This document shows, in pieces, positions 5,219 through 10,020 of a stretch of DNA of 64,000 bases. Every line of letters starts with the position of its first letter. Position 1 is the first letter of the stretch. The stretch is from NCBI GenBank assembly GCA_000004985.1, contig GG738860.1, one strand, 5' to 3'. The position numbers and the translations under genes are program-made. This stretch comes from Naegleria gruberi. Its lineage: Eukaryota. A model generated the notes under the pieces. The model saw only the letters and a program-made list of their open reading frames with translations. It searched no databases and had not been told where the DNA came from.

Positions 5219-5875
5219 ATGTCTGACAACAATTTACCCATTCTCCACTCTTATTGGAGAGCATCCAGTCCATACAGAGTTAGAATTGCTCTCGGCTTGA
5301 AGAATATTGAATATCAATATGCACCTGTTAATTTATTGGAAAATAAACAAGCTTCCGATGAATATATGCAAAAGAATCCTGCCAAGTTACTGCCAACATT
5401 GGAGATTGATGGTCTCGTACTAACACAATCTGTTCCGATCATGGAATATTTGGAAGAAACTAGACCAAACCAAGGAGTACATTTACTTCCTTCCGATCCA
5501 ATTAAAAGACACACTGTGAGACAAATTACACAAATGGTTGCCTCTGATATTCAACCAATTCAAAATTTGAGATTGTTGAAAAAGCTTAAAGAGGATTTTA
5601 ATGTTGATGAGCAAGGAAAGGCTGCTTGGTCTAAACATTGGATTGAACTTGGATTCAATTCTATTGAAAAGGTTTTGGAAAAGACTGCTGGAAAGTTTTG
5701 TGTTGGAGATGATGTATCCATGGCTGATTGTTGTTTAATTCCTCAAGTGTATGGTGCCAGAAGATACGGTGTTGATATGAACAAGTATCCAATCATTGCC
5801 AGAATTGAACGTGCCTGTGCTGAAATGGAAGCATTCAAGAAGGCTCATCCAGAGCAACAAGTTGATAAATTTTAA
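5219..5875 (+). CDS. GSTZ1: Glutathione S-transferase zeta / maleylacetoacetate isomerase.
   Basis: 218-aa intronless ORF. The N-terminus (LHSYWRASSPYRVRIALGLKNIEYQ...LLPTLEIDGLVLTQSVPIMEYLEE) matches the GST-zeta signature (SSCSWRVRIAL...VPTL.IDG....S.AI.EYLEE). The length matches GSTZ. Confidence 0.9.
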   Translation: MSDNNLPILHSYWRASSPYRVRIALGLKNIEYQYAPVNLLENKQASDEYMQKNPAKLLPTLEIDGLVLTQSVPIMEYLEETRPNQGVHLLPSDPIKRHTVRQITQMVASDIQPIQNLRLLKKLKEDFNVDEQGKAAWSKHWIELGFNSIEKVLEKTAGKFCVGDDVSMADCCLIPQVYGARRYGVDMNKYPIIARIERACAEMEAFKKAHPEQQVDKF

Positions 5876-6018: not shown

Positions 6019-7915
6019 TCATATTTCTTCAATACTTTCTCTGGCCTTTTGCTTTTCAGCAACAGTGAGTTTTTCAAGTAATGTTCCTGCTGTGGATGGA
6101 TTCAATTTATCAGATGCATTTTCCACAGCAGTTTGAACGAGAGAAACAATCTCTTCGTCGAAATGTTTCAGTAAATGTTCATCCAAAAACCAGAAAATCC
6201 TCTCAGTTGGTACCTTGCACGATACAAAGAGTGAAATAATTTCATTGGAAAAGTGCTCCTTGTACAAGTATCCACTTTCAATGTATTTTTTCAGAAAGTT
6301 TTCACTTTCGTTTGCTATTTTAGATTGTGTATTACTCCACATTGTTCCCATTATGAAAACCATTTGAAGAAAATTAGAATGTTCACCCTCATATATTGAA
6401 TCCAAGAGAGATTGATTAGGAAGTACATTGTTGATAAGATCCAATCCTTTACAAATTTCCTTTCCCATATGAACATCTCCTGATTGGTAAATTAGCTCAA
6501 TAGCACCAATTAATACATTCAAAAATGTGACATTTTCTAAATAATAGCAATAAAATACAGTAACACATATACCATATTTTTGTAGACGGTTAGAGAATGT
6601 ATTGAATAATTGAAACCTACTTGGATCTTTTGGTGTTTGCTCACTGATTAGGAATCGATAGGCTTGTAAGATGGGATGTTTAGATAATTGCTCGACTGAA
6701 ATTCTATCTGCAGGATTAGCTGCAATACATAAACTGATTAATGTGCGAAGGGATGGTAGTTTGATTTTTTCAAGAAGAGGTTGTAAGTCAACCATATCTG
6801 ATTGGAAAAATGAGGCAAATTGCTCGTGAGAAACTCCTGAACAAACCTCTAAAAATGTTATTCCCATACTGTGGTAGGTCAGTATTTTGAAGTATTCAAT
6901 AAAACTTACGAAAAGACATCAGCTTTAGAGCTGTATGCATTTCTGAAAGCAACTTCAGGTGATATATATATTGGACTGCCACAAATTGTGTGATTTTGAG
7001 TTAGTGTGACTTCCATTACAGATTTGGCCAAACCAAAATCAGCCAATTTTACAACACCACTACTTAATAACAAATTTCCAGGTTTGATGTCTCTGTGAAT
7101 GACTCCCTTTTTTTCAAAGTATACCAACACATCAACCATTGATGAAAACCATTCCACTAATTTCTTATAGGGCAGTCTCGAGGTTTGTCCCAAATCTATA
7201 ATATCTCCTAAGCTCCCTCCATCACAATATTCCGAAACAAGTGCAATAGCATCCTTCTTAATTTTTGGTGTAAAATCTTCAAGATTATTTTTTTTAATGC
7301 ATAATTGCACAGCTCACAACTTACCAATTTTCAAATAAAATTGATCTATGTATTTCAATACATTTTGGTGATCCAATGATTTTAAAATATTAATTTCATT
7401 GTCAATTTTAGCTTGTGCATTCACCATTTGTGTAGTGTTGGTTGTAGTTGAGCTAGTAGGAGCAACCATTACTTTCATTGCATAGAATTGACAGGAAGGA
7501 GTAGGTGATGAATAGGTCGCAGTGGATTTTCTAGTTGGTTGGTTGAAAACTGTGTCGAAAATCTTGCTATTGACAGCTGACAAAGGACTGTGAGCATTTC
7601 TCACACTCGGAGACCTGTCCTCTCTAACTCTCTTCACTTTAAACACTAACAGAATAATAATATTAGCATCACATTCATCATCATTTAAAACCTACCCTGT
7701 CCAAATGCACCTAAATAATTAATAGATCAATATTTCATCAAATATTTCTTCTTACCTTCTCCAATTTTAGAGACAACTTCATAACTTCCATAAACTTTTC
7801 CAATAGCACAAAACGTATTACCACTACTCGCTGGTTTACCATTAAATAACATATCAGAAGCTTCCCTATTGAGAAATCCATCCGAATCTTCACTCATAGA
7901 GGTTCTATTGCCCAT
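6019..7915 (-). CDS. N-myristoylated Ser/Thr protein kinase with a C-terminal helical (ARM/HEAT-like) domain. It has five exons, one of them a 15-nt micro-exon: join(7915..7756, 7710..7696, 7645..7325, 7276..6910, 6868..6019) on the minus strand. Predicted length ~570 aa.
   Basis: Kinase motifs are spread across four ORFs: MGNRTS (Met-Gly-x-x-x-Ser myristoylation start), YAMKV, HRDIKPGNLLL, DFGLAK, SPEV and DVFSMG. The introns are GTAAGA/GTAGGT/GTAAGT...AG, 41-50 nt. The micro-exon GTGCATTTGGACAGG restores the glycine loop GEGAFGQVFKV. Confidence 0.8.
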
Positions 7916-8385: not shown

Positions 8386-10020
8386 TTATTGTTGCTTGAC
8401 TGCAAGACTACTTAATTTTCTTTCTGACTTATCTTCCTTCTTTCTCAACTTGCCCCTAAGCGCTTCCTTTTGGGTTTGTTTTTGGAATTCTACAGTTTGT
8501 TTGAAACGGTGATGAGTATCGAGCATGAGGATGCAAATTTCTGATTCAACTCCATCGAACAATTGATCTCCCAAATGCTCATTTTGGCCAGTTGCAAAGA
8601 AGTCTAACTGTTGCTTGACCTTATCTCCAACTTGTTTGTTGATATTGACCGATTTTTCACCATGAACATCCAAGAAATCGGTAAAGATTTCAAAGGCAAT
8701 TTCATACTTTTTCTTTTCAATTTCAGCAAGATCCTTTTCAGTATAGCCCTTTTTCTTCTTCTTCTTTTTGGTTTCAGTGGCAGAACTTGCTTCAGAAACA
8801 CCATCAGAAAGACTCAAGTCGCTGTCATAGAGGTAGACTTGAATGTCAAATGATTTTTCACAGAGACACTTGTAATCAGTAATCTTGTCCAATAGGAGAA
8901 AGTTATCCAAACTCATCTCTTGCTTGCAATGGTTCTTGAATAGATTTCTCAATTTGTCATCTCTAAAGGTATCCATCAAAAGGAAGGCTTTAATTTGCTT
9001 CAACTTCTTGGAATTGGTGGCATCCTTCTTTACAGAGAGAACAATTGAAGCTATCATGACAGGAACAACAATCAAAATTGAAACACAAATAACAATCAAA
9101 CAAATCGTGGTAATGATTACAGAAAAGTCCAAGCTATCTTTTGTCAATTGTTGGATATAATCAACGAGTGGTTCAAATTCAATATCAAAACCTTCGACAT
9201 AGTACTTGTATGCCTCACTTTCCAAAAGGTCCATAGCTATGGAGTAGTTTCCTTCTTTGGCATACTTGATAACTAAACTTTCAACTCCCATTGCCTTTGC
9301 AGTTCTTAAATCATCAATGCTAATATTGTGAGCTACTTGGTATTGGAGATTCTTTGGAACAGATGCCAAGATTATATTAATGTTGGCCATGAACCCCTTA
9401 TAGTGTCCTGAGTAATCTTCGATGAATCTTTCAGCAATCTCCTCATTGCCATTGCAAAATGCTGCTCCTCTTGCATCATGTATCATCAAGTGTCTATAGT
9501 ATGCTGTATCATCATCAATACCACTTAGTTTCTGACTATAATTGCTAGTCATTACAAATGATACAATAATGATAGCTCCCAAAATTAAAAAAGCCAATAA
9601 ATTGAAACTCAACGAGGACAAGTTCAATATTTTCAACCATGATAACTCCAAAGTACCACAGCATGTTCTCAACTTGATAGCTCCTTCAGATGAGGTTGTA
9701 CTCTTAGTTGTGGATGATCGAGGAGTTTTTGAGGAGGCAATGGAACCACTCTTGTCATGAGGCTTGTTTGCTGAAGGGAAAGATTTTCCATTATCTGAGT
9801 GATCATCTGATGATGAATTGTCATATTTACTCATAGCAATATTCAATTTAATTTGAGTTGTTCCTTCTCCAGTGGAGTACCTAGGTGAAGCAAATTTGAG
9901 TTGATGTTCTACAGATGATTTTTGAATACCTTCACTAGAACTGGCCACATCACTCAACTCTATCATTGTACTTCCTATTAAATTTGCTTGGGATGAGGAA
10001 GAAAAGCCTGAATCTGACAT
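8386..10020 (-). CDS. Membrane-anchored RGS (regulator of G-protein signalling) domain protein. The 5' end is lost in the assembly gap.
   Basis: 544-aa ORF running into the N-run. It has two hydrophobic segments (LLAFLILGAIIIVSFVMT; VIITTICLIVICVSILIVVPVMIASIVLSV). The RGS-like core (MSLDNFLLLDKITDYK...YEIAFEIFTDFLDVHGEKSVNI) lies near the C-terminus and is followed by a K-rich tail. Confidence 0.7.
   Translation of the reverse strand: MSDSGFSSSSQANLIGSTMIELSDVASSSEGIQKSSVEHQLKFASPRYSTGEGTTQIKLNIAMSKYDNSSSDDHSDNGKSFPSANKPHDKSGSIASSKTPRSSTTKSTTSSEGAIKLRTCCGTLELSWLKILNLSSLSFNLLAFLILGAIIIVSFVMTSNYSQKLSGIDDDTAYYRHLMIHDARGAAFCNGNEEIAERFIEDYSGHYKGFMANINIILASVPKNLQYQVAHNISIDDLRTAKAMGVESLVIKYAKEGNYSIAMDLLESEAYKYYVEGFDIEFEPLVDYIQQLTKDSLDFSVIITTICLIVICVSILIVVPVMIASIVLSVKKDATNSKKLKQIKAFLLMDTFRDDKLRNLFKNHCKQEMSLDNFLLLDKITDYKCLCEKSFDIQVYLYDSDLSLSDGVSEASSATETKKKKKKKGYTEKDLAEIEKKKYEIAFEIFTDFLDVHGEKSVNINKQVGDKVKQQLDFFATGQNEHLGDQLFDGVESEICILMLDTHHRFKQTVEFQKQTQKEALRGKLRKKEDKSERKLSSLAVKQQ

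Follow-up and report, generated by a model that had tools for sequence, protein, structure and literature searches.

A 15-nt micro-exon in the heterolobosean amoeba Naegleria gruberi encodes the core of the glycine-rich ATP-binding loop of a predicted protein kinase. Very probably it is a genuine exon that is constitutively included in the mRNA, so that the kinase is made with a normal loop. The micro-exon lies at positions 7710-7696 of the 64-kb stretch of N. gruberi DNA analysed here (the window), in a kinase gene on the minus strand (7915-6019) that carries the public name NAEGRDRAFT_66011. Splice sites, reading frame, agreement with the public protein and conservation in other species together provide strong evidence that 7710-7696 is a genuine internal coding micro-exon.

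The exon upstream of the micro-exon translates into MGNRTSMSEDSDGFLNREASDMLFNGKPASSGNTFCAIGKVYGSYEVVSKIGE followed by a single G, that is, MGNRTS...VVSKIGE with the first base of a Gly codon at the very end (AAA ATT GGA GAA G). The micro-exon is preceded by TTTAG and followed by GTAGGT, which provide a canonical AG acceptor and GT donor, and the next exon starts at 7645 with TGTTTAAAGTG. Joining the three pieces produces KIGEGAFGQVFKVKRV, or GAAGGTGCATTTGGACAGGTGTTT as the spliced sequence with the micro-exon included, and the loop peptide GEGAFGQVFKVKRV. The micro-exon thereby supplies the core of the loop, and the outer Gly and Val codons are split by the two flanking introns. It is internal, not longer than 15 nt, bounded by AG and GT and in frame, as the structural definition of a coding micro-exon has it. 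When either intron is retained, translation soon terminates, 13 codons past KIGE for intron 1 and 12 codons past KIGE for intron 2. Skipping the micro-exon keeps the frame, with the loss of GAFGQ and the junction peptide KIGEVFKVKRV.

We enumerated all splice paths across 7825-7620 that leave the frame open, with either one GT..AG intron or two, each 25 nt or longer. Among the 228 paths obtained, GxGxxGxV was restored only by way of 7710-7696, and the GEGAFGQVFKV sequence known from the orthologues arose only from the pair of introns of 45 and 50 nt. A tandem donor at 7691 (GTAG/GT) was rejected: it shifts the frame when used with the normal acceptor, and no open path through it yields the canonical loop. 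A degenerate pattern describing the exon, AG followed by (G)A-F/Y-GQ(V) and GT, matched once in the whole window and not at all in 100 dinucleotide-preserving shuffles.

The spliced model of the gene comprises six exons with a coding sequence of 1629 nt and encodes 542 amino acids (Table 1). All five introns are short, AT-rich and of the U2-type GT..AG class with near-consensus sites, ranging from 41 to 84 nt. In an exact-sequence look-up, the encoded protein was identical, letter for letter, to XP_002678900.1 / EFC46156.1 / UniRef100_D2VAX4. Because of this identity, the micro-exon is already annotated; it is part of the existing public gene model. The entries of N. gruberi and its orthologues bear the names 'predicted protein', 'uncharacterized protein' or 'non-specific serine/threonine protein kinase'. 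Literature searches with five gene and protein identifiers (four from N. gruberi and one from N. fowleri) returned no paper mentioning any of them, and searches combining Naegleria with micro-exon, or micro-exon with glycine-rich loop, returned nothing specific.

An earlier note, made from the sequence of this DNA, had given coordinates and sequence strings that all proved correct; its interval of interest, 7646-7755, corresponds to intron 1, the micro-exon and intron 2. Its proposal of a kinase gene agrees with the domain match described below and with the annotated protein, and its assignment of the loop core to a 15-nt micro-exon is borne out by that same protein and by three other species. 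The path enumeration upheld its statement that subdomain I is intact only after the three-way splice, and the frame is indeed preserved upon skipping.

Conservation provides the second line of evidence. The best homologues were found in N. fowleri (56% identity), N. lovaniensis and Willaertia magna (47%). We compared the orthologues FDP41_008209 (N. fowleri, locus L003), C9374_007671 (N. lovaniensis, locus L004) and ABK040_006779 (W. magna, locus L001), with the cluster members P0121 and P0122 in place of the N. fowleri nr entry P0001, for which no contig is recorded. Exact protein-to-genome mapping through the micro-exon reproduced the annotated proteins of N. fowleri and N. lovaniensis; in W. 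magna, the mapping gave spurious exons of 0-9 nt at the 3' end of the gene and was used for the first five exons only, which agree with the sequence, the micro-exon with its flanks being taken directly from the locus. All four species, which represent two genera, have a 15-nt exon in this place that is flanked by AG and GT and bounded in phase 1 on both sides. The orthologous loops read GEGAYGQVFKV in N. fowleri and N. lovaniensis and GEGAFGQVFKV in W. magna. The loop codons follow GGN GCN TWY GGN CAR GTN; each of the six codons varies at its third position from species to species, and the sole change at a first or second position is F/Y (TTT/TAT). The introns around the micro-exon differ four-fold in length among the species. 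Even in the close pair of N. fowleri and N. lovaniensis, their sequence identity is only 52% and 58%, compared with 55-83% for the other five introns of the gene. Changes at synonymous sites next to diverged introns are the signature of a translated exon, and this pattern indicates that the micro-exon is under purifying selection and older than the split between Naegleria and Willaertia. Furthermore, the retention of either flanking intron introduces a premature stop in each of the four species, so both introns must be removed for the protein to be made.

The same comparison bears on the possibility that the 15-mer is no exon at all, with exon 1 always spliced to exon 3, a loop-less pseudokinase as the product and the GAFGQ segment as a relic or a chance occurrence. 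The direct splice from exon 1 to exon 3 is in frame, as this explanation requires. However, the 15-mer, its AG/GT flanks and its phase have been kept in four species of two genera, its changes are confined to synonymous sites and the single F/Y exchange while the surrounding introns diverge freely in sequence and length, the remaining catalytic residues are all kept, and none of the 100 shuffles produced the exon pattern. We regard this explanation as scarcely credible.

Gain or loss of introns has altered the rest of the gene, and both introns flanking the micro-exon have been kept in all four species. Exon 4 of N. gruberi (6910-7276) has its counterpart in three separate exons (249+52+66 nt) of N. 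fowleri (L003 2476-2962) and N. lovaniensis; the W. magna gene has an additional intron within exon 1 and is missing intron 3. A paralogue in W. magna, P0003, with the loop GKGSYGEVY, is intronless. The longest introns in the genes of N. fowleri and N. lovaniensis are the two beside the micro-exon, the other five being 43-72 nt; in N. gruberi and W. magna, the flanking introns are of ordinary size.

Table 1. Exons and introns of the N. gruberi kinase gene (positions in the window) and the orthologous micro-exons (positions in the respective loci), with the loop codons of each species.
Feature	Species	Coordinates	Strand	Description	Loop codons
Exon 1	N. gruberi	7915-7756	-	ATG at 7915-7913; ends in phase 1; boundaries from translation and exact protein match	
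Intron 1	N. gruberi	7755-7711	-	45 nt, GT..AG; donor GTAAGA at 7755-7750; 3' end TTATTTAG; 18% G+C	
Micro-exon GTGCATTTGGACAGG	N. gruberi	7710-7696	-	15 nt; phase 1 at both ends; codes (G)-A-F-G-Q-(V); flanking introns 45 / 50 nt	GGT GCA TTT GGA CAG GTG
Intron 2	N. gruberi	7695-7646	-	50 nt, GT..AG; GTAGGT...TGTTAG; 3' end TCTGTTAG	
Exon 3	N. gruberi	7645-7325	-	beta2, long low-complexity insert, beta3 Lys (FYAMKV), alphaC Glu (NEINIL)	
Intron 3	N. gruberi	7324-7277	-	48 nt; GTAAGT...CTTGAAG	
Exon 4	N. gruberi	7276-6910	-	367 nt; HRDIKPGN, DFG and SPE of the catalytic core	
Intron 4	N. gruberi	6909-6869	-	41 nt; GTAAGT...CCACAG	
Exon 5	N. gruberi	6868-6621	-	end of the kinase domain	
Intron 5	N. 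gruberi	6620-6537	-	84 nt; GTAGGT...TTATTTAG	
Exon 6	N. gruberi	6536-6019	-	conserved C-terminal region with no Pfam match, then TGA stop	
Micro-exon GAGCCTATGGCCAAG	N. fowleri	L003 1842-1856		flanking introns 175 nt (1667-1841) / 208 nt (1857-2064)	GGA GCC TAT GGC CAA GTA
Micro-exon GCGCCTATGGACAAG	N. lovaniensis	L004 1790-1804		flanking introns 123 nt (1667-1789) / 176 nt (1805-1980)	GGC GCC TAT GGA CAA GTT
Micro-exon GTGCTTTCGGACAAG	W. magna	L001 3239-3253		flanking introns 42 / 40 nt	GGT GCT TTC GGA CAA GTA

The protein that results from including the micro-exon has the hallmarks of a functional kinase. Residues 110-354 match the Pfam Pkinase domain (PF00069) with E = 5.4e-45 and 154 bits against a cut-off of 31.7. 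The glycine-rich loop GEGAFGQV occupies residues 52-59, fits GxGxxGxV, is present only when the micro-exon is spliced in, and aligned with LGEGSYGSVFKA (GEGSYGSV) of human MST2 (structure 5dh3). The AMK motif (K116), E142, HRDIKPGN (226-233), DFG (245-247) and SPE are invariant among the four orthologues and one paralogue (alignment A1). All catalytic motifs are thus intact, and we infer that the gene encodes an active Ser/Thr protein kinase. STE20/MST, ULK and NEK kinases (5dh3 for MST2, 4wno for ULK1 and 2wqm for NEK7) share this canonical kinase domain with all its catalytic motifs, with a similarity to the N. gruberi protein of only E ~1e-25 over the C-lobe; unlike them, the N. gruberi kinase has an extra insert between beta2 and beta3 and a C-terminal region without a Pfam match. 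Since several families (NEK, STE20/MST, ULK and MAP3K) score almost equally, we assigned the kinase to none of them.

The insert is a Ser-, Thr- and Pro-rich segment of low complexity, ~45 residues long, located between beta2 and the beta3 Lys (residues ~66-110, exon 3). It varies in length and sequence among the orthologues and is missing in the W. magna paralogue P0003. The C-terminal ~180 amino acids (residues ~370-542) are conserved among the Naegleria and Willaertia orthologues, with such stretches as LPNQSLLDSIYEGEH and FLKKYxESGYLYK. As for the N-terminus, the kinase had been described in the earlier note as myristoylated. The sequence MGNRTSM does fit PROSITE PS00008, G-{EDRKHPFYW}-x(2)-[STAGCN]-{P}, and Gly2 is invariant. 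The three orthologues, however, fail the pattern: position 6 is occupied by Ile, in place of a favourable residue, both in MGQNPIK, shared by N. fowleri and N. lovaniensis, and in MGNHIIL of W. magna. On the motif match, N-myristoylation of the N. gruberi kinase is plausible.

How could so small an exon be spliced? Two short U2-type phase-1 introns cut the DNA of the GxGxFGxV loop, inside the first Gly codon to which the micro-exon contributes and inside the Val codon, and each of them would most likely be recognised separately, by intron definition. An exon of 15 nt is too short for complexes to occupy both adjacent introns at once, as has been argued for plant micro-exons (PMC8831610). Because there is no room for both complexes, the two flanking introns would probably be spliced out one after another. 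Once the first intron is gone, the micro-exon would be joined to an exon of ordinary size. The mature mRNA would then always contain the micro-exon, and the protein would possess the normal beta1-turn-beta2 clamp for the ATP phosphates.

The earlier note had suggested instead that the micro-exon offers a clean alternative-splicing on/off switch for catalytic activity. As a regulated cassette, the micro-exon would be skipped by joining the donor at 7755 to the acceptor at 7646, which would give a 537-aa loop-less protein (KIGEVFKVKRV) acting as an inactive or dominant-negative pseudokinase. This proposal draws on several observations, some of which also weigh against constitutive inclusion. The micro-exon is 15 nt long with equal phase at both ends, and the skipped isoform is in frame in N. 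gruberi and in all three orthologues. The combined 'super-intron' of 110 nt would be close to the natural intron sizes of the gene. The longest introns of the N. fowleri and N. lovaniensis genes flank the micro-exon, which could hint at something special. Exon skipping in general occurs in N. gruberi transcriptomes and is tied to short exons, which are generally skipped more readily (PMC6142364). In addition, we deduce the inclusion of the micro-exon in the mRNA from conservation and annotation, and the genes of all four species are annotated as computational models.

Against a switch stands, first, the ordinary nature of in-frame skipping. It is no special sign because any exon with a length divisible by three can be skipped in frame, and chance alone makes one exon in three frame-preserving. 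Frame-preserving exon skipping is an animal trait in published surveys; in other eukaryotes, retained introns prevail, and lengths that preserve the frame are not overrepresented among skipped exons (PMC6142364). The 2018 survey from which N. gruberi RNA-seq data originate found more retention than exon skipping in all but one species (PMC6142364), so that the prior from the literature is low. Second, elements that might be expected around a regulated exon were missing. In the comparison of N. fowleri with N. lovaniensis, conservation is no higher in the flanking introns than in the others, and no UGC (TGC) occurs in the 40 nt at the 3' end of the upstream intron in any of the four species. 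Third, an exact look-up in a collection of 15 billion sequences found the included form of the protein and not the 537-aa skipped form, which is weak evidence, as protist annotations seldom list isoforms. Metagenome contigs were also scanned for a cDNA-like junction, TCTAAAATTGGAGAAG-N{0,15}-TGTTTAAAGTGAAGAGAG, of either form; there were no matches for inclusion or skipping in this collection, which is mostly genomic and hence uninformative. Finally, the loss of five residues from the beta1-beta2 hairpin may merely destabilise the N-lobe. In light of these points, the clean on/off switch was not sustained, and we consider a regulated cassette very unlikely. Its most specific version, in which stage- or stress-dependent skipping (in the amoeba-to-flagellate transition or the cyst) would turn a membrane-anchored kinase into a pseudokinase without a P-loop in heterolobosean amoebae, seems highly improbable.

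Regulation could also act on the introns rather than on the micro-exon. The micro-exon would be included by default, the flanking introns would be removed slowly and sequentially, and transcripts retaining them would tune the amount of kinase. The premature stops that follow retention of either flanking intron in all four species would suit such detained introns. For over 72% of constitutive plant micro-exons, one or both of the flanking introns are detained, with consecutive removal (PMC8831610), and intron retention is the main form of alternative splicing outside animals (PMC6142364). On the other hand, the introns of N. gruberi are very short with splice sites near the consensus, and the comparison of N. 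fowleri and N. lovaniensis introns revealed no conserved intronic elements. We think this unlikely; it is an elaboration compatible with constitutive inclusion rather than a true alternative: it would control the quantity of the kinase and would not switch its activity.

Animal micro-exons usually code for surface loops, whereas the N. gruberi micro-exon codes for a motif of the catalytic core. The neuronal micro-exons of animals that depend on SRRM3/SRRM4 (PMC7821500, PMC12626424) resemble it in being at most 30 nt long, a multiple of three and skipped in frame. They differ in that the N. gruberi micro-exon has no sign of regulated inclusion, its flanking introns are unconserved and its host is single-celled. 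Of the features tested that mark an animal-type regulated cassette, namely both isoforms, conserved flanks and a UGC element, none was found. A closer counterpart is provided by plants and green algae, in which conserved constitutive coding micro-exons of up to 15 nt are an established class (Yu et al. 2022, PMC8831610). There, too, a tiny internal coding exon lies within a conserved domain, is old and mostly constitutive, and is needed for a functional motif, as in the N. gruberi kinase; in Chlamydomonas, Pkinase is the top domain carrying micro-exons (PMC8831610). Plants and algae also have intronless paralogues beside the copies with micro-exons, for which W. magna P0003 is the parallel. 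The differences are that the lineage here is Heterolobosea, within Discoba, that the flanking introns in N. gruberi and W. magna are very short (40-50 nt), and that the N. gruberi micro-exon, in contrast to most plant cases, is correctly annotated. The micro-exon is best placed in this plant and algal class of coding micro-exons of up to 15 nt, which are conserved and for the most part constitutive.

Two misleading traces in the sequence databases deserve mention. The N. gruberi protein was missing from the matches of the homology search, which suggested that the gene was unannotated, an idea ruled out by the exact look-up. The exact protein is filed in a cluster represented by a 92-aa fragment, and N. 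gruberi paralogues were also missing from the homology matches. As the exact sequence is present though unlisted, its lack among the matches is no sign of an unannotated gene. Similarly, a 92-aa representative from Logan/ENA (P0125) was considered as a possible RNA-seq contig and rejected: it comes from a metagenome contig that matches 7181-6032 with 99% identity, contains introns and stops short of the micro-exon. This contig of ~1.2 kb (L005/L006, ERR1078381, PRJEB11402; compared with 6032-7190) thus agrees at 99% with the gene over its 3' two-thirds, introns included, which indicates that a near-identical strain of N. gruberi was present in the environmental sample ERR1078381.

The neighbourhood of the kinase gene is partly conserved. 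Directly upstream, at 8386-9198 on the minus strand and continuing upstream of 9198, is a gene with an RGS domain (PF00615, E = 6e-6). An RGS gene occupies the same upstream position in N. fowleri and N. lovaniensis; the RGS-kinase pair is therefore syntenic across Naegleria. On the other side, an intronless open reading frame of 218 aa for a glutathione S-transferase (GST; 5219-5875 on the plus strand, GST_N E = 5e-14) is convergent with the kinase gene, the two stop codons being ~145 nt apart. In all three other species compared, this convergent downstream place is taken by a PLDc_2 (phospholipase D-like) gene, so synteny breaks downstream of the kinase.

In summary, the correct structure of this gene is already in the public annotation, and little follows from its confirmation. 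A gene finder or aligner that overlooked the micro-exon would wrongly label the protein a pseudokinase. Only RNA data revealing regulated skipping would make the micro-exon interesting; such skipping, if true, would amount to a functional in-frame exon-skipping switch in a lineage thought to be essentially without such regulation. For now, the value of the N. gruberi micro-exon is modest, as a clean example of a deeply conserved micro-exon of up to 15 nt outside animals and plants. It might also serve as a test case for how spliceosomes that work by intron definition on introns of 40-50 nt deal with an exon too short for two assembling complexes.

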